Shown: positions 14,749 to 57,243, counted from the stretch's first letter. The stretch: 64,000 nt of DNA from an uncultured beta proteobacterium (GCA_963700415.1 CAVOXS010000003.1:45256-109255), one strand, 5' to 3'. The notes: a model not told the origin generated them from the sequence alone. Made by a program: numbers and translations.

Positions 14749-17700
14749 TCAGTGAAAATCCCGCGACCGGGTTTGCAGATCGCCCAGCAGCGCAGAGAGG
14801 TCCGCGAGCCGTCCGGCGAGGACGTGGACGACCTGCCCCTCGCGCTCCACCTTGCCGAAGACCGCGAGCAGCTTCGCGCCGAGCAGTTCGCGGCGCTGGC
14901 GCTCGCCGACGTCGCGCCAGACGATCACGTTGGTGGCGCCGGTTTCGTCTTCGAGCGTGACGAAGACCACGCCGCTCGCGGTGTCGGGCCGCTGCCGGCC
15001 GATGACGATTCCCGCGGTGCGGACGATCCGGCCCGGCGGCGCCCGCGCGATCTCGGCCGCCGTGGCGAGCCGCCGCCGCTGCAGCTTGTCGCGCAGGAGA
15101 GCCAGCGGGTGCCGCCGCAGCGTGAGCGACAGCGTGCGGTAGTCGGCGACGATGTCCTGTCCTTCGGTCGGCGGCGGCAGCACGGGATCCGCGGTGTCGA
15201 AAACGCTGCCTGCGAGCAATGCCGGCAGCCGCTCGACGCCGGCGACCCCCCACGCCGCGTCGTGCCGATGACCGGCGAGCGCCGCGAGCGCGTCGGCCTC
15301 GGCCAGGCAGGCGAGGTCGCGGCGGTCGAGCCGCGCGCGGTGCGCGAGGTCGGCGACACTCGCGAAGGGCTGCGCGCTCCGGGCTTCGACGATCCTGCGC
15401 GCGCCGGATTCGGAGAGTCCGGCGACGAGACGCAGACCCAGGCGCAGCGCGGGAGAAAGCAGGATCGGGGTCGGACACGAATCTTCATTCCGGCCGATCG
15501 CAGGAGGAAGGCCTTGCCGAAGATTCGCATCCGACCCCGATTCCGCCGGCCGAATTTCTTCCAGCGTGCAGTCCCACTCGCTCGTCGTCACGTCCGCGGG
15601 GCGCACCTCGACGCCATGCCGGCGAGCATCCTGCACGAGCTGCGAGGGCCCGTAGAAGCCCATCGGCAGCGAGTTGAGCAGCGCGGCGCAGAACGCGGCG
15701 GGCTCGTAGCGCTTCAGCCACGCCGACACGTAGACGAGCAGCGCGAAGGAGGCCGAGTGCGATTCCGGAAAGCCGTACTCGCCGAAGCCCAGGATCTGCT
15801 GGTAGATCTGCCGCGCGAAGCCTTCGGCGTAGCCGCGCGCGCCCATGCCGTCGATCAGTTGCTGCTCGAATTTCTCGAGGCCGCCCTTGCGCCTCCAGGC
15901 GGCCATCGAGCGCCGCAGATGGTCCGCCTCGCCCGGCGTGAATCCCGCCGCGACGATCGCGAGCTGCATCACCTGCTCCTGGAAGATCGGCACGCCGAGC
16001 GTGCGCGCGAGCACGCTCTGCACCGCTTCGCTCGGATAGGTGACGGGCTCCAGACCTTGCCGGCGGCGCAGGTACGGATGCACCATGCCGCCCTGGATCG
16101 GGCCGGGGCGCACGATGGCGACCTCGATCACGAGGTCGTAGAAGCACGCGGGCTTGAGCCGCGGCAGCATCGCCTGCTGCGCGCGCGACTCGATCTGGAA
16201 CACGCCGATGGTATCGGCGCGCTGGCACATCGCGTAGACCTCCGGGTCCTCGGCCGGAATGTCCTGGAGGGTCAGCGGCGCCAATGGGGTCAGAGTCGAT
16301 ATGCCGGCGCGCGATTCATGATCGCTGCGCGGTGGATGGAAATTCGACTCTGACCCCATTCCGGAGCGCCGCCATTGCGGGGAAATGTGACCTGACCCCA
16401 ATTTCGACACCATGTCGAGGCAGCGCCGGATCGCCGACAGCATGCCGAGCGCGAGGCAATCGACCTTCAGCAGGCCCAGCGCGTCGAGATCGTCCTTGTC
16501 CCACTGGAGGACGGTGCGCTCCGCCATCGCCGCATTCTCGACCGGCACCATCCGCTCCAGCAGGTCGCGCGCGATGACGAACCCGCCGACGTGCTGCGAC
16601 AGGTGGCGCGGGAAGCCCATCAGCTCGCCCGTCAGCTTGACGAGACGGACGAACATCGGGTTGTCGGGCTCGAACCCCGCCTCGCGGACACGCTCGGGCC
16701 TGACCTCGCGGCCGTCCCACCACGCGAACATGCCGGCGAGCCGGTCCACCTGCGCAAGGTCGAGGCCCAGCGCCCGGCCGACATCGCGCACGGCGCTCTT
16801 CGGCCGGTAGGTGATGAGCGTCGCGGCGAGCGCCGCGCGGTCGCGGCCGTATTTCGCGTAGATGTACTGGATGACTTCCTCGCGCCGCTGGTGCTCGAAA
16901 TCGACGTCGATGTCGGGCGGCTCGTTGCGCTCCTTCGAGATGAACCGCTCGAACAGCATGTTCATGCGCGCGGGATCGACCTCGGTGATGCCGAGCGCGT
17001 AGCAGACCGCCGAGTTGGCCGCCGAGCCGCGGCCCTGGCAGAGAATGCCCTGCGCGCGCGCGAAGGCGACGATGTCGTGGACGGTGAGGAAATACGGCTC
17101 GTACTTCAGTTCCGCGATCAGCGCGAGCTCGTGCTCGATCAGCGCCCGGACGTCGGGAGGGCAGATCGCATCCGCGGGGACAGACCCCGATGCCACGCGG
17201 GGAATCGGGGTCTGTCCCCGAATGCCGCGCGGGAAGCCGTGGCCGGTCCCCGCATACCGCCGCGCCAGTCCCGCTTCGACCAGTGCGCGCAGATGCGAGG
17301 CCGGCGTCTGCCCCGGCGGGACGATTTCCTCCGGATACTCGTAGCGCAATTCGTCCAGCGAAAACGCGCAGCGCCGCGCGATGGCGACAGTCTCGGCGAG
17401 CAGCTCGGGCGGGTAGATCGTCGCGAGTCGTGCGCGCGAGCGCAGATGCCGCTCGCCATTCGGATGGAGCGCGTAGCCGCATTCGGCGAGCGGCTTCCTG
17501 ACGCGGATCGCCGTGAGCGTGTCCTGCAGCGCGCGCCGGGCGCGCACGTGCATGTGAACGTCGCCGGCGGCGACCTGCGGCAGGCCTGTCTGCCGTGCCA
17601 GCGCCGCGCAGCGCGCAAGCCGGGCGCGGTCGCCGGCACGGGCGAAGAGTTCGACCGCGAGCCACGCGCGGCCGGGAAAGACGGCGGCAACCCAGCGCGC

Positions 17701-18234
17701 GATGGCGAGGGTCTCGCCATCGCGGGGAACGGGAATCGGATACGGGCCGATCGGGGTCGGATGCGAATCCTCATCAGAACCGTCCCCCTGTGTGCGGCCG
17801 GAATGGGAATTCGTATCCGCCCCCGATCCCGACTCCGATCGCCTCGCCGGCTCCGGCGGCACCCACAGCGCGAGGAGCCCGTCCGCGAACGTCGCGACGT
17901 CGTCGCGGGACAGCGCGTAGCGGCCCTTCTGCGCGCTGCGCCGCCCGCGCGTGATCAATTGCGCGAGGTTGCCGTAGCTCGCGCGGTCGGTGGCGAGCAG
18001 CACGAGCTTCACCCCGTCGATGAGCGCGACCTCGCTGCCGATGACGAGCGGAAGGCCCGCGTGCTTCGCTGCGAGATGCGCGCGGACGATGCCCGAGAAC
18101 GAGCACTCGTCGGTGATCGCGAGCGCCGCGTAGCCCTGTGCCCGGGCGCGCTCGACCAGTTCCTCCGGGTGCGACGCGCCGCGGAGGAACGAGAAATTCG
18201 ACAGGCAGTGCAGTTCGGCGTAGGCGGGGAGCAT
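14749..18234 (-). CDS. dnaE2: error-prone DNA polymerase DnaE2 (ImuC), intact but carrying four in-frame repeat insertions
   Basis: ATG at 18234 ([24 protein letters not shown] domain). Further motifs: [28 protein letters not shown], and the C-terminal OB fold [18 protein letters not shown]. The gene has 1161 codons. The 51-codon upstream extension in the ORF track covers the operator region and is rejected. Confidence 0.92.
15464..15541. repeat. 78-nt palindromic repeat unit (copy E1) inside dnaE2
   Basis: atcggggtcggacacgaatcttc...gaagattcgcatccgaccccgat. The terminal inverted repeats match at 21/23. The unit is exactly 26 codons and is translated as [26 protein letters not shown]. Confidence 0.85.
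16283..16360. repeat. 78-nt palindromic repeat unit (copy E2) inside dnaE2
   Basis: aatggggtcagagtcga...tcgactctgaccccatt with perfect 17-bp terminal inverted repeats. It is 78 nt long. The left-arm pattern GGGGTCrGAnnCGAATyTyCAT is shared with E1/E4. Confidence 0.85.
16381..16403. repeat. solo right-arm copy of the same repeat
   Basis: ggaaatgtgacctgaccccaatt versus the E2 right arm ggaaattcgactctgaccccatt, about 18/23 identical. It lies 20 nt after E2 and is also translated within dnaE2. Confidence 0.6.
17176..17251. repeat. GGGGACAGACC/GGTCTGTCCCC-type palindromic repeat (copy E3) inside dnaE2
   Basis: A perfect 16-bp inverted repeat ggggacagaccccgat / atcggggtctgtcccc is separated by 12 nt. 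It is followed by a gggaagcc-containing arm shared with the lexA and imuA leader copies. The outer boundaries are approximate. Confidence 0.75.
17750..17827. repeat. 78-nt palindromic repeat unit (copy E4) inside dnaE2, inverted relative to E1
   Basis: Its reverse complement aligns without gaps to E1 at 62/78 positions by hand count. It has the same ATCGGGG...CCCCGAT ends, the same 78-nt length and the same codon phase. Confidence 0.85.
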
Positions 18235-18286
18235 CGGGATCGCCGCAACGGGGTGCCAGGCACAAGGGTCGCGCGCGCGGAGATAG

Positions 18287-18302
18287 CCGTGTAAATATAC
18301 GG
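18287..18302 (-). promoter_or_regulatory. candidate LexA operator (CCGT-N8-ACGG), proximal to dnaE2
   Basis: ccgtgtaaatatacgg, which reads CCGTATATTTACACGG on the dnaE2 strand. It lies 53 nt upstream of the dnaE2 ATG. The same palindrome type sits in the lexA promoter. Confidence 0.6.
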
Positions 18303-18315
18303 TATTCGACAATGA

Positions 18316-18331
18316 CCGTATGAATAGACGG
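18316..18331 (-). promoter_or_regulatory. candidate LexA operator (CCGT-N8-ACGG), distal to dnaE2
   Basis: ccgtatgaatagacgg, which reads CCGTCTATTCATACGG on the dnaE2 strand. It starts 29 nt from the start of the proximal box. Confidence 0.55.
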
Positions 18332-18426
18332 TCGGCATGGCGGGGAAGAGGCGGCGAGGAAGGGCCCTGTCGCGGTCCGCCGGCCATCGCCGCGCAAAGG
18401 CCGGTAAGATGCCGGCTCCGCCGTGC

Positions 18427-18467
18427 GGGGACAGACCACGGCTTCCGCGGAACTCGGGTCTGTCCCC
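18427..18467. repeat. short GGGGACAGACC/GGTCTGTCCCC hairpin repeat in the dnaE2 / M14 peptidase intergenic region
   Basis: ggggacagaccacggcttccgcggaactcgggtctgtcccc, ending 21 nt before the peptidase ATG. Confidence 0.8.
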
Positions 18468-18488
18468 AAGCGACAGGAAAGCCACGCC

Positions 18489-20176
18489 ATGCCCGCCATC
18501 GCCTTCGACCGTTTCTACCGCTACGCCGACCTCACCGCGATCCTCCAGGCCTTCGCGGCCGAGCATCCGGGCCTCGTGTCGATCGAATCGATCGGCAAGA
18601 GCCACGAGGGCCGCGACGTCTGGGTGCTGACCGTCACCAGCGCTCGCCACGGGCCCCGCGGCCGAGAAGCCGGCGTTCTGGGTGGACGGCAACATCCACT
18701 CGACCGAGGTCGCGGCATCGGCGGCGAACCTTTACTTCCTGCACACGCTTGGTCACCGGGTACGGCAGCGATCCCGACGTGACCCGGGCGCTCGACACCC
18801 GCGCGTTCTACGTCTGTCCGCGGATCAACCCGGACGGCGCCGAATGGGCGCTCGCGGACAAGCCGAAATGGGTCCGCTCGAGCACCCGCCCGTATCCGTG
18901 GGACGAAGAGGAGATCGACGGGCTCACCGTCGAGGACGTCGACGGCGACGGCCGGATCCTCCAGATGCGCATGCCCGATCCCAACGGACTCTGGAAGGAC
19001 CACCCCGAGCAACCGGGCCTGATGATCCGGCGCGACCCCGTCGAAACCGGCGGCAGCTATTACCGGATACTTCCCGAAGGCACGATCGAGGGTTGGGATG
19101 GCTTCACGTTACGAGTGAAGAAAAATAAGCAGGGACTTGATCTGAATAGAAATTTCCCGGCGAACTGGCGCCAGGAGTTCGAGCAGCTCGGTGCCGGGCC
19201 GTTTCCAACCTCGGAGCCCGAGGTCCGCGCGGTCGTGGAGTTCGTCGCCGGCCATCCGAACATCACCGGGGGCGTCGCCTTTCACACCTGGAGCGGCGTG
19301 CTGCTGCGTCCGTTCGACCATCAGTCCGACGCGGAGATGCACGCCGAGGACCTCTGGCACTACCGGAAGGCCGGGGCGAAGGGGACCGAGCTGACCGGCT
19401 ATCCGGCGATCTCGGTCTACGAGGAATTCCGCTATCACCCCAAGCAGGTCATCGGCGGCGCGTTCGACTGGATCTACGAGCACCTCGGGATGTTCAGCTG
19501 GGTGGTCGAGATCTGGAGCCCGATGCACGAGGCCGGCATCAGGAACTACAAATACATCGACTGGTTCCGCGACCATCCGATCGAGGACGACCTCAAGCTC
19601 TATCGCTGGAACGTCGAGCAGCTCGGCGGGGCCGCGCACATCCCGTGGCGGCCGTTCGACCATCCGCAGCTGGGCCGCATCGAGATCGGCGGCTGGAACC
19701 GCTTCCACGCGTTCGGCAACCCGCCGCCGGCGTTCCTCGAGCGCGAGATCGCGCGCTTCCCGAAGTGGCTCCTCTGGCAGGCGCTGACGTCGCCGAAGAT
19801 GGAGCTGGTGGCGGCCGCAGCCGACCCGCTGGGCGACGACCATTGGCGCGTCCGGCTCGTCGTCCAGAACACCGGCTGGCTGCCGAGCTACGTCTCGAAG
19901 CGGGCGCTGGAGCGCAAGGTCGTGCGCGGAGTCATCGCCGAGATCGCGCTGCCCGCCGGCGCCGATCTCGTCCACGGCAAGCGGCGCGAGGACCTGGGCC
20001 AGCTCGAAGGCAAGTGGGGCAAGCACACCGGCGTGTCCTTCTGGCCCGACTACAACGTGACCGACGATCGCGCGAAGATCGAGTGGGTCGTGCGGGGGCG
20101 CAAAGGCGACCGGATCGACCTCGTCGCGCGACACGAGCGCGCCGGCACGGTGCGCGCCGCGGTGACGCTTGGCTGA
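18489..20176 (+). pseudogene. M14 family zinc carboxypeptidase, two +1 frame breaks near 18650 and 18750
   Basis: Three frames carry successive parts. [50 protein letters not shown] is in frame 0. PAAEKPAFWVDGNIHSTEVAASAANLYFLHTL is in frame 1. VTGYGSDPDVTRALDTRAFYVCPRINPDG...NRNFP...FHTWSG is in frame 2. The span is 1688 nt (3n+2). Confidence 0.8.
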
Positions 20177-20221
20177 TCGCCCGTTGGGAGCGGCCATGGC
20201 GATGCGGTTCGGCGCAGGCGA

Positions 20222-20993
20222 GTGCAGAGCCGTCGTCCCGGCCTTCGGCGGCTCGCCGCGCGCCTGCTGGTCGCTGCGGCGGCCGGGCTCGCGGCCATTG
20301 GCGGTGCCGCGCAGGAACCGCGCGGAAGGGGCGGCTCGAAGCATCGAGCACATCATCGTCATCTACGCCGAGAACCGCAGCTTCGATCATCTCTACGGCC
20401 TGTTCCCCGGCGCCAACGGCATTGCGCAGGCGACCCCGGCCGAGTACACGCAGGTCGATCGCGACGGCGCGCCGCTCGCCGAGTTGCCGCCCGCATGGCG
20501 CGGCAGAGACGCCGACCCGGTCTTTCCGCACCGGCTGCCGAACCGGCCGTTCCGCCTCGACGCGCCGCCGTTCGACCTGCCGCTGTCGCAGCGCGTGCGC
20601 AGTGCGGTGCACCGGTATTACCAGAATCGCGAGCAGATCAACGGCGGGCGCAACGACCGCTTCGCGGCAGTGTCCGATGCCGGCGGCTTCGTGATGGCGC
20701 ACTACGACGGCTCGAAGCTGCCGATGTGGCAATGGGCGCGCGACTACGTGCTCGCCGACAATTTCTTCATGGCGGCCCACGGCGACTCGTACCTCAATCA
20801 CCAGTGGCTGATCTGCGCGTGCACGCCGCGCGACGAGAACGCGCCGGCCAATCTGCGCGCGCAGGTCGACGGGCGCGGCTGGCTGAAGCGCCGTCCCGGC
20901 TCGCCCGCCTCGGCGGGCGACGGCAACCTGCTGCTGTTCGATGGCAGCGTGACCCCCGATGGCTACGTCGTCAACTCGGGTTACGCGCCGTAA
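20222..20993 (+). pseudogene. phosphoesterase (phospholipase C / acid phosphatase AcpA family), 5' half only, plus a +1 frame break near 20312-20340
   Basis: The signal-like MQSRRPGLRRLAARLLVAAAAGLAAIGGAAQ is in one frame. IEHIIVIYAENRSFDHLYGLFPGANG...NGGRNDRF...SYLNHQWLICACTP is in the next. The ORF stops at ...DGYVVNSGYAP, roughly half the usual family length. Confidence 0.65.
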
Positions 20994-21049
20994 GTTTCTG
21001 CGCGTAGCCCTCCCCGACGAACGGCGCGCCGGCCTGCCGGCGGAGGCCC

Positions 21050-22011
21050 TTGCGCTCGTCGAGCAGGACGGTGGACGAGACCGGTGAACTCGAAGTGCTC
21101 CACTTCGACCACGCCGATCCGGCCGACGATTTCTATCTTCATTTTCTGCGCACGCCCAAGGGCAGGTTCTCGCTCCATTTCGCGGGCAGGGTGCCCGACG
21201 CAGCCGCCGGCAAGAGGGTCCGTGTCCGTGGCGTCAAGCTGCGAGCAGGCCATCGTTCTGGCCAACGCCGGCGACATCACCACGGCTCACGGCCATCGCC
21301 GATCGGGGCGGCGCTGCCGGGCACGCTGGGCGCGCAGAGGACGCTGGCGATCCTGGTCAACTTCCGTGACGCGCCGACGCAGCCGTTCTCTGTCGCGTAC
21401 GCGCAGGGTCTGATGTTCGGCACGACCAGCAACTACGACTACGAGACCTCGTACCAGCAAACGTCGCTGACCGGCGATGTCGCGGGCTGGTTCACGATCG
21501 CGGAATCGAGCGGCGCGTGCAATTACGGCAATATCGCGGCACAGGCGCGACAGGCCGCTACGGCGGCGGGCTACGCGCTCGCGAATTACGCGCGGTACGT
21601 CTACGTGTTCCCTGCCAACACCTGCGCCTGGTGGGGGCTGGGTTCCGTCGGCGGCAACCCTTCGCAGGCGTGGATCCACGCCAAGTGGGGCTTCACGCTG
21701 CCGGTGGTCGGGCATGAAATGGGTCACAACTTCGGTCTCTATCACTCGCATTCGCTCGACTGCGGCGCGGTTTCCATCGCGGCTGGCGGCTGTGCGTGCC
21801 TCCGACTACGGCGACATCTTCGACATGATGGGCAGTTCCAACACCACGCCCCACTACAACGCCTTCCAGAAAGAACGCCTCGGATGGCTCAATTCCGGGG
21901 TGTCGCCGCCGATCACCACCGCTATCCGCGGTGCCGGGAACGACCAGCCACACGATCGCGCCGATCGAGGATGCCCGAAACGGCGTGCCGCGGGCACTCA
22001 AGATTCCGCGC
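21050..22011 (+). pseudogene. zinc metallopeptidase core (HEMGHNFGLYH; gametolysin/M11-like), lacking N- and C-terminal parts, with frame breaks near 21797 and 21928
   Basis: ELEVLHFDHADPADDFYLHF...TLGAQRTLAILVNFRDAP...WWGLGSVGG...VVGHEMGHNFGLYHSHSLDCG is followed by SDYGDIFDMMG...AFQKERLGWL (+1 frame) and then AVPGTTSHTIAPIEDARNGVPRALKIPRG (+1 again). There is no signal peptide or credible start. The M11 family assignment is tentative. Confidence 0.6.
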
Positions 22012-22762
22012 GGAATCGGCGCGGCGGGAACGCTCTTCGTCGCAGGTTGCGAGCGGCTGTCCAACAGCGACTGGTTTCCGAAGGTCCTGAGCGCCGGCGA
22101 GACGGCAAGCGCCGCGGCGGCGCGCGCAGTGACCTCGCGCAAGTCGATGGCGCAGGAGTTCACCGATGCCGATCGCTCGCCGACCTTTCGCAGCAATGGA
22201 ACCGCGGAGCCGGACAGCGATGCCTATCGGCTGCTCGCGGCGAACGGGTTTGCCGACTACCGCCTGGAGGTCGGCGGGCTCGTCGCGCAGCCGGCCAGCC
22301 TTTCGCTGGCGGACCTGCGCGCGCTGCCGAGCCGGACGCAGATCACGCGGCACGATTGCGTCGAAGGCTGGAGCGCCATCGCGAAGTGGAAGGGCGCACG
22401 GCTCTCAGCGCTGCTCGAGGCGGTGCGACCGGGGCCCCGTGCGCGGTTCGTCGTGTTCCATTGCGCCGATCCCATGGAAGCCGGCGGCGCCAGTCCCTGT
22501 TACGAGAGCATCGATCTCGAGGATGCGTTCATCCGCAGGACTATCCTGGCCTACGAAATGAACGACGCGGTGTTGCCCGTCGCCAACGGCGCTCCGGTCC
22601 GATTGCGCGTCGAACGGCAGCTGGGCTACAAGCACGCGAAGTACGTGATGCGCATCGAACTGGTCGAAAGCTTCGCCGGGATCGCGGGCGGGAAGGGCGG
22701 TTACTGGGAGGCACCAGGGCTATCAGTGGCCCCGGTCACGCATTCCCGAATACGCCGTGTAA
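22012..22762 (+). pseudogene. molybdopterin-dependent oxidoreductase (sulfite oxidase / YedY-like fold), missing its own start and fused in frame to the peptidase remnant; probable +1 break near 22711
   Basis: GIGAAGTLFVAGCERLSNSDWFPKVL looks like the end of a Tat/lipoprotein signal. Further motifs: FRSNGTAEP, SRTQITRHDCVEGWSAIAKWKGARL, APVRLRVERQLGYKHAKYV. The expected C-terminal GGYWE-HQGYQW continues in the +1 frame to TAA at 22760-22762. Confidence 0.65.
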
Positions 22763-22975
22763 AAACCACTCGCCGTCGTCGATCCCGTAGCGGTGATCGC
22801 GATAGATCCACACGGTCTCGCCGCGCGGGTTCTCGGCGACGAAGTAATCGCGGCGCACGTCGCGGCCGTCCCACCATCCCGACTCGATCCGCTCCGGCCC
22901 GTCGCGCAGCACCCACGGTTGCGCTTCGAGCCGGTGACCGAGCGGCTCCGGCTCGGCGAGCAGCCAGACCGGGCG

Positions 22976-23060
22976 GGGGACAGGCCACGGTTTTCGAAGC
23001 GGTCGTTCGGCTGTTCCCGTGAAATCGCGTGGCCTGTCTCGGACAAGTCGATTCTGACCC
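22976..23060. repeat. composite palindromic repeat inside imuB (GGGGACAGGCCACG...CGTGGCCTGTC unit plus a GTCGATTCTGACCC half arm)
   Basis: gggggacaggccacgg...cgcgtggcctgtctc followed by ggacaagtcgattctgaccc. If it begins at 22975 its length is 86 nt (3n+2), which equals the frame change seen across it. Confidence 0.75.
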
Positions 23061-23760
23061 TGCTTTCGCGCCACGCGCGCTCGGGCCGGTGCTCGGCGTG
23101 CGGCGCGACGAGCGTCACCGCATCTTCGCCCAGCCGTGCGCGCAAGCGGTCGAGCAGCGGAACGGTCGCGAGCTGCCTCGTCCCCGGGGAAGAGGCCGAG
23201 GTTGCGGCTGGCCAGAGGGGCGGTCGCCTTGCTCGCGAGCGTGATCGCCTCGACCGGCGCCGGCAGCACGATGCGCGCGAGCCGCTCGCGCAGCACGGCG
23301 ACGAGATGCGCGGGCTCGCGCGCCGGCGCGGCGAGCGCGAAGCCGACGATGGTGGCGGGCACGCCGGTCGCAACACGGACGTAACGCTCGTGCGCGAGCA
23401 CGAGCGACATTTCGACGACACCGAGCCCGCGGCCCGTGAGCCATCCCGCCAACTCGAGCACGAGCCGGTTCACCGCGAACGCGAGCGCGTCGACGCTTGC
23501 CACCGGCGCCGGCAGGTCGAGTTTTCCCGTATAGCCCGGCGGCGGCACGAACGGCGGTCGCGGCTCCGGGACGAGCCCGCGCACGCGATCGAGAATGGCG
23601 ACGAAATCCGCGCCCACGCGCCGTGCCAGCGCGGCGCGCGGCAGCGCGCACGCCTGCCCGAAGGTCGTGATGCCGGCCGCGGCGAGCGTCGCGACGGCGG
23701 CGGGATCGGCTTCGGTGAGAGAGAGCGGCAACGGGAGAAGCGCGTCGAGCCAGGACATGC

Positions 23761-23840
23761 GGGCGAATCAGGCGCGGACGTTTGCTCGATCGCTCCCGGT
23801 CTTGCTCGCGAGAGCTGCCGGAAAAGCGGGATCTGACCCC
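23761..23840. repeat. degenerate ~80-nt copy of the GGGGTCAGA-type repeat inside imuB, carrying the in-frame stop
   Basis: The right arm ccggaaaagcgggatctgacccc resembles the E2 arm. The degenerate left arm is gggcgaatcaggcgcgg. The TGA at 23768-23770 falls in the TCAG core of the left arm. Confidence 0.55.
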
Positions 23841-24341
23841 GCCGTTGCCGCGCGCGCGAACAGCAGGGCCGCGGCGGGCGTGGGCGCGAGCGCGAGCCGC
23901 GTGGCGTAGCCAAGGTCGTGCGCGCCCCGGGAAAGCCTTGCGCTCAGCTGCGGCAGGCCGCCGAAGAGCCGCAGGCTGCCGCCGATCTCCGCGAGCACCG
24001 CGTCGGGCGGCGCGAGCGCGACAGCCGGCGTGAACTGCGTTGCCCAGGACGCCACGGCTTCGAGCGCGGCGGACTCGGCATCGGGTCGCGGTCGCGCAGC
24101 ACGAGGTCGGGCGCGAGCGCGAGCGACGCCGAGACGAGCTGTCCCGGGCGGATCCCGGCGTCGCGCGCGCCGGCATTCGCGTCGACGATGCGCGGCGTGC
24201 GCCCGCCGCTGCCCACCGCGAACGGCTTTGCCGCCTCAGCGGGCGAGGCCGCCCGCGCGAAGACGTCGAGGGGCAGCGAGGGCAGAAGCAGGCACGCCCA
24301 GAGCATGGCGGATGGCGGCAACGCGCGCGGGCCTGTTCACG

Positions 24342-25052
24342 CTACGTCGGCAAGACGTGTGGCGGGCGCAAACGGCCGGACGCGAGCGCACGGCCCGCGC
24401 TGGTGCGAGGATCGAGGAGCGGCGGGACGCCGCCGGCGGCATCCACGTCGAGGCATACCGGCTGCGCGAGCTCGCCGCCGCGGCGCTTCAGCACGTGCAC
24501 CGCGAGCCGGCCCTCCCGCGGGGCGAGTGCCAGCCGCAACGACGCGGTGGCGGCGATCGCGCGCTGGCCGGGACGCCGCCACAGCACGCCCCAGGTGCGA
24601 CCCTCGCGCGCGGCGACCGCGAGCCTGCGCATCGTGCGGTCGTCGTGCGGGCCGAGCCACGCGAACGCGGCGCCGCATCCGGGCGCACGCAGCGCCTGCT
24701 CGTAGGCCCACAGCTGATCCGCCGGGTTGCGGCAATGGACGACCAGCAGCCGCGCGAGATCGAGCCCCGCGGCAGCGAGCGCCGGCGCGTACGGCACATG
24801 GGGCGGCGCGATCCAGACGACGTCACGGCCCTGTGCCTGCAACCGCGCGAGCGCCGGCAGCGTGAGACGGATCTCGCCGATGCCCTCGCGTTCGAGCACG
24901 ATCTCGGTCAACGCGGCTCCCGGCCAGCCGCGACCGGGCAGCACGGCATCGAGCGCGGGAAAACCCGACGGCAACGCGGCGGGCTCGGGCGCGCAGTCGC
25001 CGCCGCGCCAGATGGCGGGGTTGGACAGCACGGCGGCGAGGGCGGGATTCAT
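24342..25052 (-). CDS. imuA: ImuA (RecA/SulA-like SOS mutagenesis protein)
   Basis: MNPALAAVLSNPAIWRGGDCAPEPAALPSGFPALDAVLPGRGWPGAALTEIVLEREGIGEIRL..., 236 aa. It forms the lower part of ORF 24342..26207 and lies directly upstream of imuB. Confidence 0.85.
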   Translation of the reverse strand: MNPALAAVLSNPAIWRGGDCAPEPAALPSGFPALDAVLPGRGWPGAALTEIVLEREGIGEIRLTLPALARLQAQGRDVVWIAPPHVPYAPALAAAGLDLARLLVVHCRNPADQLWAYEQALRAPGCGAAFAWLGPHDDRTMRRLAVAAREGRTWGVLWRRPGQRAIAATASLRLALAPREGRLAVHVLKRRGGELAQPVCLDVDAAGGVPPLLDPRTSAGRALASGRLRPPHVLPT

Positions 25053-25120
25053 GGGGACAGACCATGCTCTTCCGGCAGGCTTCGCACGGGCAATGTCGGG
25101 GACAACGCGGTCTGTCTCCC
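25053..25120. repeat. GGGGACAGACC/GGTCTGTC-type palindromic repeat filling the VOC-imuA intergenic gap
   Basis: ggggacagaccatgctcttccggcaggcttcgcacgggcaatgtcggggacaacgcggtctgtctccc. It abuts the imuA ATG (25052) and overlaps the VOC stop codon (25120-25122) by 1 nt. It is about 80% identical by hand alignment to the lexA leader copy. Confidence 0.85.
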
Positions 25121-27035: not shown

Positions 27036-27048
27036 TCTTTTTGCATAG

Positions 27049-27064
27049 CCGTATGGATATACGG
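27049..27064 (-). promoter_or_regulatory. candidate LexA operator (CCGT-N8-ACGG) in the lexA promoter
   Basis: ccgtatggatatacgg, which reads CCGTATATCCATACGG on the lexA strand. It lies 7 nt downstream of the -10 hexamer. Confidence 0.65.
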
Positions 27065-27071
27065 TAAGTGA

Positions 27072-36982: not shown

Positions 36983-37056
36983 TGGAGGCGGGGGTCGGAA
37001 TCGAACCGGCGTAGACGGCTTTGCAGGCCGCTGCATGACCACTCTGCCACCCCGCC
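36983..37056 (-). tRNA. tRNA-Cys (anticodon GCA)
   Basis: The reverse complement reads GGCGGGGTGGCAGAGTGGTCATGCAGCGGCCTGCAAAGCCGTCTACGCCGGTTCGATTCCGACCCCCGCCTCCA (74 nt, clover-leaf consistent). Confidence 0.9.
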
Positions 37057-43742: not shown

Positions 43743-46617
43743 TCAACCCGCCGGCGGCTGCCCTTCCTTGTGCGTCTCGACGATCTGCAGCGGCTCGTCG
43801 GGGATGACGACGCGCGGCGGCCGCACGCGGCGCGGTCCGGCAGGCGGCGCCGGGTCGGGTTCGGGCATGGGCACCGCTTTCGATCGCGTCTCGACGAGCT
43901 CGAGGCCGGAATCGGCGGGGAGCGTCATCGACACGCTCGGCAACGCCTCGATCGGGCGCGGCGGCGGCGCCGCAGGCCGGGCGGCGCAACGGCCTCCGGC
44001 GCGACGGCTGCAGGAGCCGCGACCGGCGCGACCGACACGTTCGACTTCCGCCGGTGCGGTGGCGCGTTCGGTTTCCGCCGGCGCGATGGCGCGTTCGGTT
44101 TCCAGCGGCGCGACGGCGCGCGGCGGTTCGACGGCTTGCAGTGGCGGCACGGGAGCCATCGGCGGCGCGATGTCGGCTTGAGGGGCGTGCGCGACCTCCG
44201 CCACGCGCGCGGGGGCCTCCGGCAGCACCGGTGCCTCGGCGTCATCGACGCGTGCTCCGGTGCCGGCGGTCGCGCGACCTCCGGACGCTCGCCACGGTCG
44301 CCGCGGCGGTGACGGTCACGGCGGCGGCGGTTGCCGTCGCCGCCTTCACGCGGAACGGCAGCCTGATCCAACGGACGCTCCATTCCCGGCTCGGCGGCCT
44401 CGATGGCGGGCAGGGTGGCATCCGCGCTGACAGGCGGCTGCGACGCGGTTCGCGGGGCGGACGAGGCTCGCGCGGCGGCTGACCCTCACGCGGCGGCTGA
44501 CCTCGCGCGGGCTCACGCGGCGGCACGCGGTTCGCGCGGTGGCCGGGCTTCGCGGGGCGGCTGACCATCGCGTGGCGGCTGACCATCGCGCGGCGGTCGC
44601 TGCTCACGCGGCGGACGCGGCTCGCGCGGCGGCTGTCCTTCGCGCGGCGCCTGACCGTCCCGGCGCTGACCCTGCGCGCCCTGCTGCGGACGCGCGTCGC
44701 CGCGACCCGCCGCGATTGTCGCCGACCGTCGCCGCGGCGCTCGTCGCGCCGGCCCTGGCCGCGACCGCGGTCGCGATCTCCGCGGCCGTCCCGGTCGCTG
44801 CGGCCGTCTCGCGCTTCGCGGCGCGGTTCGCGGCCTTCGCGCGGCGCTTCCGCTCGTGGCGGCGGCGCCGGAATGGCCGGCTCGCTGCGGAACCAGCCCA
44901 GGACCCCGGCGAGCCAGCCGGTCGAGTTCCGCGGCGCGCGCGGCGGCGCAACCGGCGCGGGCGTGGGTACCTCCACCGGAACGGGCGCCGGCTCGGCCGG
45001 CGTGATGCCCTTGACCGCCGCCTCCTGCCGCGGCTCCTTCGCTTCCTCCTTCATCTGCTGGACGCGGTCGGGCTCCTCCGGCTGCGTGACGAGGTTGAAG
45101 CTCAGCGGCAGCGGCTCGCTCTGGTTGAGGTCGTCGTGGCGCAGCCGCTCGATCGTGTAGTTCGGCGTCTCCAGATGGCGGTTCGGCACGAGCAGCACGT
45201 TGACCTTGAACCGCGTTTCGATCGACAGCACTTCCGTGCGCTTTTCGTTGAGCAGGAAGGTCGCGACGTCGACCGGCACCTGCGCGACGATCTGCGCGGT
45301 GTTTTCCTTCATCGCCTCTTCCTGCAGGATGCGCAGGATGTGGAGCGCGGTCGATTCGGTGCCGCGGATGTGGCCGATGCCGTGGCAGCGCGGGCAGGGG
45401 ATGTACGCCGACTCGGCGAGCGCCGGGCGCAGCCGCTGGCGCGACAGTTCCATCAGGCCGAAGCGGGAGATCTTGCCCAGCTGGACGCGCGCGCGGTCGT
45501 AGCGCAGCGCTTCCTTGAGGCGATTCTCGACCTCGCGCTGGTTCTTCGCGCTCTCCATGTCGATGAAGTCGATGACGATGAGGCCGCCCAGGTCGCGCAG
45601 GCGCAGCTGGCGGGCGATCTCGTCGGCGGCCTCGAGATTGGTGTTGAACGCGGTCGCCTCGATGTCGCCGCCCTTGGTCGCGCGTGCCGAGTTGACGTCG
45701 ACCGAGACCAGCGCCTCGGTGTGGTCGATGACGATCGCGCCGCCGGAGGGCAGCGGCACCTGCCGCGCGTACGCGGTCTCGATCTGGTGCTCGATCTGGA
45801 AGCGCGAGAACAGCGGCACGTCGTCCTTGTAGAGCTTGACGCGATGCACGTTGGCCGGCATCACGTGGCTCATGAACTGCTGCGCCTGCTCGTAGATCGC
45901 CTCGGTGTCGATCAGGAGCTCGCCGATGTCCGGCTGGAAGTAGTCGCGGATCGCGCGGATGACGAGGCTCGATTCCTGGTAGATCAGGAACGCGCCGGAC
46001 TGCAGCTTCGACGCGTCCTCGATGGCGCGCCACAGCTGCAGCAGGTAGTTCAGGTCCCACTGCAGCTCTTCGCTGCCGCGGCCGATGCCGGCGGTGCGGG
46101 CGATGACGCTCATGCCCGCGGGAACGTCGAGCCCGCCGATGGCGTCGCGCAGCTCGTTGCGCTCCTCGCCTTCGATGCGGCGCGACACGCCGCCGCCGCG
46201 CGGGTTGTTCGGCATCAGCACCAGGTAGCGACCGGCCAGCGAGATGTAGGTCGTGAGCGCCGCGCCCTTGTTGCCGCGCTCGTCCTTGTCGACCTGGACG
46301 ATCAGCTCCATGCCCTCCTTGAGCTGATTCTGGATGCGCCGCGCCCGGCGCCTTCGCCTTCGTCGCCGTCCGGCCACGCCCTTGAGGAACTGGCGCGCGA
46401 TCTCCTTGAACGGCAGGAAGCCGTGGCGCTCGGTGCCGTAGTCGACGAAGCAGGCCTCGAGGCTGGGCTCGACGCGGGTGATGACGGCCTTGTAGATGTT
46501 GCTCTTGCGTTGCTCCTTGCTCGCGGACTCGATGTCGAGGTCGACCAGTTTCTGGCCGTCGACGATCGCCACCCGGAGCTCCTCCGCCTGGGTGGCGTTG
46601 AACAGCATGCGCTTCAT
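43743..46617 (-). pseudogene. rne: ribonuclease E; catalytic N-terminal half intact, Arg/Pro-rich repetitive C-terminal half with several frame changes
   Basis: ATG at 46617 ([24 protein letters not shown]). It has the S1, DNase I-like and Zn-link regions ([65 protein letters not shown]). As it stands the ORF stops at 44242. The family-typical C-terminal end (...SGLELVETR...LQIVETHKEGQPPAG*) is ORF 43743..44228 in another frame. The total span is 2875 nt (3n+1). Confidence 0.85.
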
Positions 46618-55452: not shown

Positions 55453-57167
55453 CGACATCTTCACCGAGCCGCAGCGCCTGCACAAAGTGCTGGCGTCGTG
55501 CGGCTTCGGCTCGCGCCGCGCAATGGAGGAAATGATCCTCGCCGGCCGCATCACCGTGAACCGCGAGCCCGCCGACGTCGGCCAGAAGGTCGGGCCGGGC
55601 GACGAGGTGCGGATCAACGGCGAACTCGTGAAAGTCCGCTTTGCCGAGCCGCGCGCGCGCATCCTGATGTACCACAAGACCGCCGGCGAGATCGTCACCC
55701 GCGACGATCCCGAGGGACGGCCGACGGTGTTCGAGAAGTTGCCGAACATCGGCCACGGCAAGTGGATCGCGATCGGGCGCCTCGACTTCAACACCGAGGG
55801 GCTGCTGCTGTTCACGAATTCCGGCGATCTCGCGAACAAGATGATGCACCCGCGCTACGAGGTCGAGCGCGAGTACGCGGTCCGCGTGATGGGCCTGTTG
55901 ACGCCCGAGCAGCAGCAGGCGCTGCTGACGGGCATCGAGCTCGAGGACGGACCGGGCAAGGTCGAGAAGATCGAGGACGGAGGCGGCGAGGGCTCCAACC
56001 ACTGGTATCACGTGGTGCTGAAGGAAGGGCGCAATCGCGAAGTGCGGCGCCTGTTCGAGGCGCTCGGCCTCACCGTGAGCCGACTCATTCGCACGCGCTA
56101 CGGGCCCGTGGCCATGCCCTCGCGCGTGAAGCGCGGGCAGGTCCTCGAGCTGACGCCGGACGAGGTGGGTGCCGTGCTGGTGACGGCCGGCATGCGCTTC
56201 ACCGGGCCCTCGCCGCACAAGCAGGGACAGGGCGGGCGCGGGCAGGGCAAGGGTCCGCGGCAGCCGGGTCGGGGTCAGCGGGAAGGCGCAGTCGATGGAC
56301 CGAGGCGCGAGCCCGACCCGCAAGCGGACTTGTCGGCGGATCCTGATTCTGCCGTCGAGTTCGAAGGGATCGAGCCGGGCAACAGCGTCCATGGCCTGCC
56401 CACGCACGGCAATACGCCCGTCGGCAAGTTCTTCAGCAAGACCCACGGCAAGCCACACGGGCGACCGCAGGGGCAGGGCTGGCCACGGCGCTCCGGGCCC
56501 GGCCAGGGCCACGGGGCACGCCCCTACGGGCAACATGGGCGGCCGCAGGGCGGCAAACCGCGGCACGGCGAAACGCGCGGCGGATACGGTTCGGCGTCGC
56601 CCTATGTCATGACGACGCTCACGGTTCCGGGCGCCGTGCCGGAGGGGCTGCCGGGAACGGGAGCCCCGCGACCGCAGGGAGCCGGTCGCGGCCACGGTCC
56701 CAAGGGTCAGGGTCGGGGCCATGGACCCGGCGGGCAAGCCCGCGGCAACGGCCCCGGCGGGCCGGGTCGAGGCAAGGGACCGGGCGCGCCGGGGTACGGC
56801 AACGGACCCCAACCGACCGGGCAGCGGCAACGGGCCCGGCGTGCCGGTCGCAGGTCAGGGCAAGAAGCGCAGCCGTGGCAAACGGAATCGGCGCGGACCC
56901 GATTCGGAAGCGCTGCCGGGGAACGTTGCCCCGCGCGTGGAGCGGCCGGCGGACATCGACGACGATATCGGCAATCGCCAGCCGCGAGCGCCGAGGAGCG
57001 ACACCATGCCGCGCCCCGACGCGCCGCGTGCCGCGGTTCCGGCCGGCGTCGACGACGACTTCGGCAATCGCAAGGCACGCGAACCGAAGCAGCAGTCGAA
57101 TGCGGGCAACGAGGCGCCGCGAGCGGACCGGCCCGCCGTCATCGACGACGATTTCGGCAATCGCTGA
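55421..57167 (+). pseudogene. rluB: 23S rRNA pseudouridine(2605) synthase RluB with a long Gly/Arg/Pro-rich tail, +1 frame break around 56790-56840
   Basis: It has the S4 domain ([30 protein letters not shown]), the catalytic [18 protein letters not shown], and [10 protein letters not shown]. The tail continues in the +1 frame to TGA at 57165-57167 with three DDD[IF]GNR motifs. The start is uncertain (ATG at 55304, 55379 or 55421). Confidence 0.8.
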
Positions 57168-57243
57168 TTGCGAGGGCGGCGAGGGTCGGCGCCCCGTTCG
57201 CACCGCAAGGGCGGGGCGGGCACCGGCCCCGCTCGCAACCGGA

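Follow-up and report, generated by a model that had tools for sequence, protein, structure and literature searches.

The gene for the error-prone DNA polymerase DnaE2 (dnaE2) in a 64,000-nt stretch of DNA from an uncultured beta proteobacterium (GCA_963700415.1, CAVOXS010000003.1:45256-109255; this whole stretch is called the window below) carries palindromic sequences at four internal sites and remains open from end to end. This raises the question of what these sequences are, how they could have entered a polymerase gene and why they are found there. They probably represent four separate, recent insertions of small non-autonomous palindromic repeats, belonging to two related families, in four surface loops of a functional dnaE2. 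An earlier note on the same DNA had proposed that an intact dnaE2 of 1161 codons harbors four in-frame copies of palindromes that also occur in non-coding positions of the window.

The dnaE2 gene and its palindromic inserts

The integrity of the host gene was confirmed. The translation of the open reading frame is free of stops over 1161 amino acids (aa) and matched the NCBIfam model NF004225 ("error-prone DNA polymerase") with 1469.5 bits at a cutoff of 939, and the Pfam domains PHP, Pol3-alpha, finger, HhH and OB were found in the product. The catalytic aspartate columns of DnaE2 showed no variation in an alignment with 66 relatives. Comparison of the dnaE2 core with the orthologue on locus L001 yielded a ratio of nonsynonymous to synonymous substitutions (dN/dS) of 0.19 at a dS of 0.27; the core is under purifying selection. 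Judged by its sequence, dnaE2 of the window probably encodes a working polymerase. Its nearest database relatives are DnaE2 proteins of uncultured Casimicrobiaceae/Burkholderiales genomes with lengths of 1026-1220 aa, and a typical DnaE2 length, judged by 78 DnaE2 proteins from many orders, is about 1024 aligned core columns. The gene and its inserts are located as follows.

14749..18234, minus strand: dnaE2 (error-prone DNA polymerase III alpha), the intact host gene, 1161 aa, identified by NF004225 and Pfam matches
17750..17829, minus strand: loop 1 insert (PHP domain, aa ~136-162), a more decayed type-2 copy, absent from L001
17173..17250, minus strand: loop 2 insert (N-terminal part of the palm, aa 329-354) with type-1 GGGGACAGACC ends, a net gain of exactly 26 codons relative to relatives
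16283..16360, minus strand: loop 3 insert (palm/fingers junction), a type-2 element of 78 nt whose 17-nt terminal inverted repeats are perfect
~16376..16403, minus strand: second, separate insertion at loop 3, the solo end GGGGTCAGGTCACATTTCCCC, identified by a three-way DNA alignment
15462..15541, minus strand: loop 4 insert (beta-hairpin tip immediately preceding the helix-hairpin-helix domain, aa ~899-924), a type-2 element oriented oppositely to the loop 1 copy

All four stretches are palindromic and rank among the strongest local inverted repeats of the window. The palindrome arms measure 28 nt in 15459-15546, 17 nt without mismatch in 16283-16360 and 23 nt in 17175-17220, and 17749-17828 is likewise palindromic. 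The mRNA folds predicted for the four inserts have energies of -59, -44.3, -57.2 and -43.8 kcal/mol with z-scores from -8.7 to -3.4. The loop 2 insert consists of a 46-nt hairpin of the perfect type (17175-17220) and a degenerate extra end; given in the earlier note as a stretch of 76 nt (17176-17251), it corresponds to a net loop gain of 26 codons (17173-17250). The region 16283-16403, previously taken as one insert, proved to be a composite of the 78-nt element and the solo end at about 16376-16403, with a few original loop codons between them. This solo end resembles the end of the element in loop 3 of locus L002 and has no significant fold on its own.

Two families of repeats were distinguished. 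Type 1 is defined by GGGGACAGACC ends, for which 12 matches with at most one mismatch were found in the window versus 1.2 expected. Type 2 is defined by the motif GGGGTCRGANNCGA, with 9 matches versus 1.6 expected in the window, six of the nine lying within dnaE2; its units of about 72-78 nt are bounded by GGGGTCRGAnnCGA ... TCGnnTCYGACCCC. The two related families have GGGG(A/T)C(A/G)GA ends and a length of about 72-78 nt. The idea that all four inserts are copies of the non-coding palindromes of the window therefore stood in part: the stretch at 17176 does share the GGGGACAGACC ends, and the remaining three (type-2 copies 15464-15541, 16283-16360 and 17750-17827) belong to the second family. 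The sequences 15462-15541 and 17750-17829 are 80% complementary over 80 nt, which identifies them as the same element (subfamily) in opposite orientations. Besides the dnaE2 insert, five more type-1 copies occur in the window, and no complete type-2 copy was found outside dnaE2 in the 64 kb. A type-2 motif match at 36991 was discarded as an element, as it falls within tRNA-Cys. Elsewhere in the window, long GC-rich ORFs contain tandem direct repeats, with units at intervals of 18 or 36 nt in 44444-44676 and three units at intervals of 93 nt in 56917-57177; these resemble repetitive segments of proteins.

With a length of 78 nt (26 codons), three of the units cannot shift the downstream frame and need only a stop-free entry phase. 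Read in gene orientation, every type-2 copy has one of the three phases closed by stops, and all three type-2 copies in dnaE2 use the same open "GS(D/E)...(L/P)TP" phase, which is independent of orientation because the ends are symmetric. Going by the open frame, the inserts are probably translated as extra, disordered loop peptides. The GC content by codon position is flat in the inserts (0.66/0.64/0.67) versus 0.75/0.48/0.91 in the core, as is expected for recently captured non-coding DNA.

Comparison with relatives and position of the inserts in the protein

The closest orthologue, P0003 on locus L001, is 1027 aa long, 91% identical over the aligned columns, located in the same gene order and lacks all four inserts. 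The net gains in the window relative to the closest relatives amount to about 34-37, 26, 37 and 27-34 aa, in total 134 aa (1161 versus 1027) instead of the roughly 120 residues estimated before. The protein P0002 on locus L002 (1160 aa), which originates from the same assembly as P0003, has extra DNA at the same four loops, made up of different elements: another type-2 element in loop 1, three tandem GGGTCGGGCTTCAGCCTGACA-type repeats in loop 2, a type-2 element with different ends in loop 3 and GTCCGGCTGAAGCCGGAC-type repeats in loop 4. In many of the 120 best homologues, one or more of the four loops hold translated elements, for example KVGSDSTF...EKSSLTLLS, in some cases as partial tandems. 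When a loop was scored as occupied if it exceeded the baseline by at least 14 aa, a neighbor-joining tree of 1004 core columns required a minimum of 20, 21, 11 and 27 changes of occupancy at the four sites among 120 orthologues. The extra sequence in the orthologues at these loops consists of different, non-homologous repeats, and the loop occupied by a given element family varies between genomes. On these alignments the four stretches are lineage-specific insertions and not an ancestral segment, in agreement with the earlier note, which had named homologous sequence at the same positions in distant orthologues as the finding that would speak against it. Inteins and introns were considered and rejected, since the inserts measure 26 aa, contain none of the relevant motifs and form part of the translated frame in many orthologues.

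The positions of the inserts were mapped on solved structures of Pol III alpha. Loop 1 lies in the PHP domain (E. coli residues ~130 to ~160), loop 2 is a palm loop (E. coli ~305-323), loop 3 is located at the palm/fingers junction (E. coli 577-584) and loop 4 forms a beta-hairpin tip directly ahead of the helix-hairpin-helix domain (Taq 881-886). A PDB search with the loop 4 context alone gave no match; a longer query did match. All four sites thus fall in loops, as had been predicted. The same four positions (core index ~130, 283, 542 and 786) are the main length-variable positions among the 78 DnaE2 proteins, and this extends to lineages with non-palindromic extra residues. Since loop length at the four sites varies across all DnaE2, tolerance explains where the inserts survive. 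In an AlphaFold model the four inserts were all placed in coil between ordered elements with pLDDT below 50; this model, built from a shallow alignment of 67 sequences, had a mean pLDDT of 63.6 and a pTM of 0.45 and lends weak support only.

These observations can be combined into a model of how the loops were filled. The repeats would move by hairpin-recognizing, single-strand transposition (RAYT/TIRYT-type, tyrosine) without target duplication. Copies landing elsewhere in coding sequence would be purged, so that only loop insertions persist. Existing copies may attract, or be replaced by, new copies, which would give composite and tandem arrangements as well as rapid turnover within the clade.

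Distribution of the repeats and alternative explanations

The lexA gene and the imuA-like and imuB-like genes lie about 4.5 kb from dnaE2 in the window. Outside dnaE2, the following repeats and presumed operators were found.

18287..18303 and 18315..18332, minus strand: two ACCGT-N8-ACGG palindromes upstream of dnaE2, presumed variant LexA operators
18427..18467, no strand assigned: type-1 hairpin in the divergent spacer between dnaE2 and the M14 peptidase gene
22977..23061, minus strand: type-1-like element (22977-23040) and type-2 fragment in the linker region of imuB, just ahead of the conserved C-terminal domain
25053..25119, minus strand: type-1 element that exactly fills the gap from the stop of the upstream gene to the imuA ATG, with an orthologous copy in L001
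26966..27035, minus strand: type-1 element in the 5' leader of lexA, downstream of the presumed operator (27048-27065) and upstream of the ATG, with an orthologous copy in L001
48881..48912, no strand assigned: type-1 hairpin between convergent HAD-hydrolase and LuxR-type genes, the sole one outside the SOS genes

Plus-strand genes fill the ~4.5 kb between dnaE2 and lexA-imuA-imuB (18234-24342), and the M14 peptidase gene is divergent from dnaE2. On L002 and L204, imuAB is not within 10 kb of dnaE2. An ACCGT-N8-ACGG box with an AT-rich center is also present upstream of lexA (27048-27065), and upstream of dnaE2 and lexA in both L001 and L002. The canonical LexA box CTGT-N8-ACAG, which is the usual beta/gammaproteobacterial box and is used by more distant relatives, occurred in the window at no more than chance level. 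This suggests that ACCGT-N8-ACGG is a clade-specific variant of the LexA box, at which LexA presumably binds. In the lexA leader, the likely Shine-Dalgarno sequence GAAGGTGG forms part of the 3' arm of the hairpin, whose stem closes 4 nt before the ATG; this hairpin could limit the translation of LexA.

The occurrence of the repeats elsewhere was assessed in metagenomes and in dnaE2 loci. The earlier note had left room for the units having no further genomic copies; besides the five additional type-1 copies in the window, type-2 copies were detected in relatives, and a two-ended pattern scan of metagenome contigs returned at least 120 type-2 stretches. Among the matches listed, most of 122 metagenome copies lie outside convincing coding frames, in unrelated non-coding contexts, and 6 of the 122 are in frame in real genes, encoding DnaE2 (loop 1), UvrA, a UvrD-helicase / PD-(D/E)XK nuclease, a hybrid histidine kinase, a PCP_red repeat protein and a BlaR1-type peptidase. 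When the translated element was used as a profile with a doubled query, only two protein matches were obtained (E-values 0.06 and 3.8).

In the dnaE2 loci, a strict finder of GGGG...CCCC palindromes missed decayed copies, and an nhmmer profile of type 2 was used instead. It was run on the window and seven close-clade loci (227 kb) and then on 80 further dnaE2 loci (1.39 Mb), together about 1.6 Mb from 88 genomes. In the 227 kb of the eight close-clade loci, type-2 matches were located solely in dnaE2, in the ImuB linker, in one imuA leader and directly 3' of dnaE2, and the 1.39 Mb of the further loci contained only two type-2 matches, both inside dnaE2. Of the 11 elements that the two families have in the window, 10 fall in the 8.2 kb (13%) that comprise lexA-imuA-imuB and dnaE2, non-coding positions included. 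Moreover, in-frame type-2 copies were found in the ImuB linker (aa ~390-420) of three relatives with an intact imuB (L203 3104-3177, L205 114-171 and L206 7679-7748), which makes ImuB a second mutasome protein colonized by the same family. These copies use the other open phase (GVR...ESDP), for example ESRVRLDFS...KIESDPIS. The counts are not independent, as some matches share ancestry and the sampling was centered on dnaE2, and the association of the repeats with SOS genes is a lead and not a result.

Several points weigh against recent, loop-tolerated insertion as a full explanation. Type 2 was never encountered in other intergenic DNA of the ~1.6 Mb sampled, so loop tolerance alone does not explain the distribution: tolerance explains the position of the repeats within proteins, and not the emptiness of the nearby intergenic DNA. 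A search for RAYT/TIRYT motifs in the window and all loci revealed no transposase except one unrelated RAYT of the GTAG type in a Nitrosospira locus. Neither a target-site duplication nor an empty-site junction was definable, as the loops are too diverged. The poor overall quality of the AlphaFold model means that the structural argument rests mainly on sequence mapping, and the translation of the inserts is inferred. The distribution might reflect targeting coupled to the SOS response, homing to copies already present, horizontal movement of the cassette or selection for hairpins that damp expression.

A possible, if doubtful, alternative is that the repeats are placed by targeting and not by tolerance, through preferential insertion into LexA-regulated mutagenesis genes (lexA leader, imuA leader, imuB linker and dnaE2). 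Transposition of this kind might require single-stranded DNA and be active in the SOS response, when these genes are heavily transcribed, or the repeats might home to pre-existing copies. The crowding of ten of the eleven window elements, even those in non-coding positions, into 13% of the sequence would fit this explanation, as would the location of all type-2 matches of the eight close-clade loci in or next to dnaE2, in the imuB linker or in the imuA leader, and of the only two matches of the 80 further loci in dnaE2. Three of the six genuine coding hosts among the metagenome matches listed are DnaE2, UvrA and the UvrD/PD-(D/E)XK helicase-nuclease, and the same bias was seen in other repeat families and left unexplained in PMC3733652. 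However, the sampling was dnaE2-centered and many of the matches are related by descent, most of the metagenome copies listed lie in unrelated non-coding contexts, and neither a mechanism nor a transposase was identified. In addition, ImuB linkers and DnaE2 loops are unusually permissive, and the low expression of these genes also favors retention. The broader proposal that the elements are specifically tied to the LexA-controlled mutagenesis module, either by transposition coupled to the SOS response or to single-stranded DNA, or by recruitment to restrain expression of the mutasome, appears rather improbable. If it is true, this clade, in which a single gene has undergone dozens of independent events, would offer a natural system in which to explain why palindromic repeats are in excess in the DNA-repair genes of bacteria, a bias that has long been noticed without being explained.

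It is also conceivable, and in our judgment distinctly unlikely, that the hairpins have been retained for a useful function: very stable mRNA structures, in the coding region as well as in the leaders of lexA and imuA, would reduce expression of the costly mutagenic polymerase system or control its timing. Folds of -44 to -59 kcal/mol inside the mRNA are compatible with such a role, and the lexA-leader hairpin covers the likely ribosome-binding site up to 4 nt before the ATG; furthermore, the leader copies are kept in L001. Against this, the presence of the repeats is patchy and the closest relative has none in dnaE2, the stem of the lexA-leader copy in L001 has decayed without compensatory changes, and different families and orientations substitute for each other. 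An Rfam scan of 14-28 kb detected no family above noise. A deeply conserved leader structure was rejected, since a scan of all loci found the leader elements upstream of imuA and lexA only in the window and in L001, and not in more distant relatives.

The state of imuB was considered in view of a further explanation, namely that dnaE2 is decaying because the mutasome is defunct through a broken imuB, or that the inserts are assembly artefacts. In the window, imuB (22700-24306, minus strand) can be read through only with three or more frame changes, and one in-frame stop lies near 23770; the frame alternates between residues 1-75, residues ~78-350, the conserved LRARLG...HRPE motif and the C-terminal domain. 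The imuB genes of L203, L205 and L206 are intact and encode 492-507 aa. The out-of-frame motif segment is common to the window and L001, and the dN/dS of 0.2-0.4 in the in-frame parts does not settle whether this is a pseudogene or an error; the frame changes reflect either a pseudogene or systematic indel errors of long reads. Even so, decay or artefact is very unlikely as an explanation of the inserts: dnaE2 is without frameshift or stop in 3.5 kb, with conserved catalytic residues and a dN/dS of 0.19, relatives with an intact imuB have inserts as well, in dnaE2 and imuB, and the inserts recur across many independent assemblies. The imuB frame changes themselves may be long-read indel errors. 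Finally, the reading of the extra segments as ancestral variable linkers of DnaE2, to which the length variation of the same four positions in distant DnaE2 and the extra residues of many relatives might point, is already contradicted by the evidence and has almost no probability left, because the segments are non-homologous between relatives, are recognizable interspersed palindromes of several families, lack coding GC periodicity, are missing from the closest relative and include one element family that occupies different loops across genomes.

Relation to known palindromic repeats

In-frame fusions by small palindromic or MITE-type repeats (MITE, miniature inverted-repeat transposable element) are established, with the Rickettsia palindromic elements (RPEs) as the paradigm (PMC10969869). 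The insertions in dnaE2 are less novel than the earlier note assumed. Di Nocera, De Gregorio and Rocco (2013, BMC Genomics 14:522; PMC3733652) catalogued intragenic REPs, many of them in replication and repair genes, DnaE2 included. Like the inserts of the window, these are short interspersed palindromes read in frame in otherwise normal genes, and dnaE2 is a named host in Opitutus terrae (aa 934-971), Sphingomonas wittichii (166-246), Rhodopseudomonas palustris (128-157) and Erythrobacter litoralis (175-203). The R. palustris insert corresponds by residue number to loop 1. The presence of element copies in frame in a UvrA gene and in a UvrD-helicase / PD-(D/E)XK nuclease gene (L141 354-5846, minus strand, and L161 4615-8256, plus strand, respectively) echoes the published bias of palindromic repeats towards repair genes.

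The repeats in PMC3733652 are GTAG- or CGTC-tagged REPs at one site per dnaE2, whereas those of the window have GGGG...CCCC ends without a GTAG or CGTC tag and occupy four loops at once with two families. Furthermore, imuB and the lexA and imuA leaders are occupied as well, and dozens of independent gains and losses occurred in the clade. In the same paper, terminal repeats flanking tyrosine transposase genes are given the consensus GGGGWSAS. This consensus is matched by GGGGTCAG (16286; loops 1 and 3 of L002) and by GGGGACAG (all type-1 copies), and GGGGTCGG (15467, 17753) is one position off.

The RPEs (Ogata et al. 2000, 2002, via PMC10969869 and PMC3733652), to which the earlier note had compared the inserts, hold as an analogy and not as a family to which the inserts belong. 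RPEs are likewise palindromic selfish repeats, in frame in functional protein genes at predicted surface positions, and they are a different sequence family of ~100-150 bp, found in AT-rich obligate intracellular alphaproteobacteria and in many unrelated genes; they comprise the families RPE-1 to RPE-10, with a CGTC tag for RPE-4/6. The elements of the window are set apart by their ends, GGGG(T/A)C...G(A/T)CCCC without a terminal CGTC, and their host is a high-GC betaproteobacterium.

A resemblance also exists to REPINs, the RAYT-mobilized REP doublets, which are hairpin-forming doublets of inverted ends of some tens of nt, without target duplication, in many copies and mostly non-coding. REPINs, however, have a defining GTAG tag and are essentially extragenic; no GTAG was present at the ends of any copy here, and a search for RAYT motifs yielded none in the window or the close-clade loci. 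A RAYT gene flanked by GTAG-type REPs was noticed directly downstream of dnaE2 in a Nitrosospira metagenome-assembled genome (L049 6294-6842); it is unrelated to the elements described here. With MITEs that form in-frame fusions (ERIC, Nezha, the Anabaena MITEs and the Coxiella QMITE; PMC10969869), the elements have in common that they are small and non-autonomous, with terminal inverted repeats, and sometimes extend reading frames. Their arms of 14-28 nt and units of 72-80 nt agree with MITE-type ends and size, although they are shorter than most MITEs; their flanks continue the palindrome (AAT...ATT, GATC...GATC) instead of forming direct repeats, and no parent insertion sequence was seen. 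By their end sequences, the elements are classed as neither RPEs nor GTAG/CGTC REPs. Intragenic palindromic repeats in dnaE2 are already published, and the gene of the window is an extreme example with four loops occupied at once.

When selfish palindromes colonize bacterial genes in frame, new protein sequence arises by a rare route, and the parts of a protein that accept insertions are revealed. Four insertions in the well-studied Pol III alpha fold, together with about 80 independent gain and loss events in relatives, provide a map of permissive sites. The near-exclusive association with SOS genes sharpens the question raised in 2013 of why such repeats favor repair genes, and this clade could serve to separate tolerance, targeting and regulatory use.

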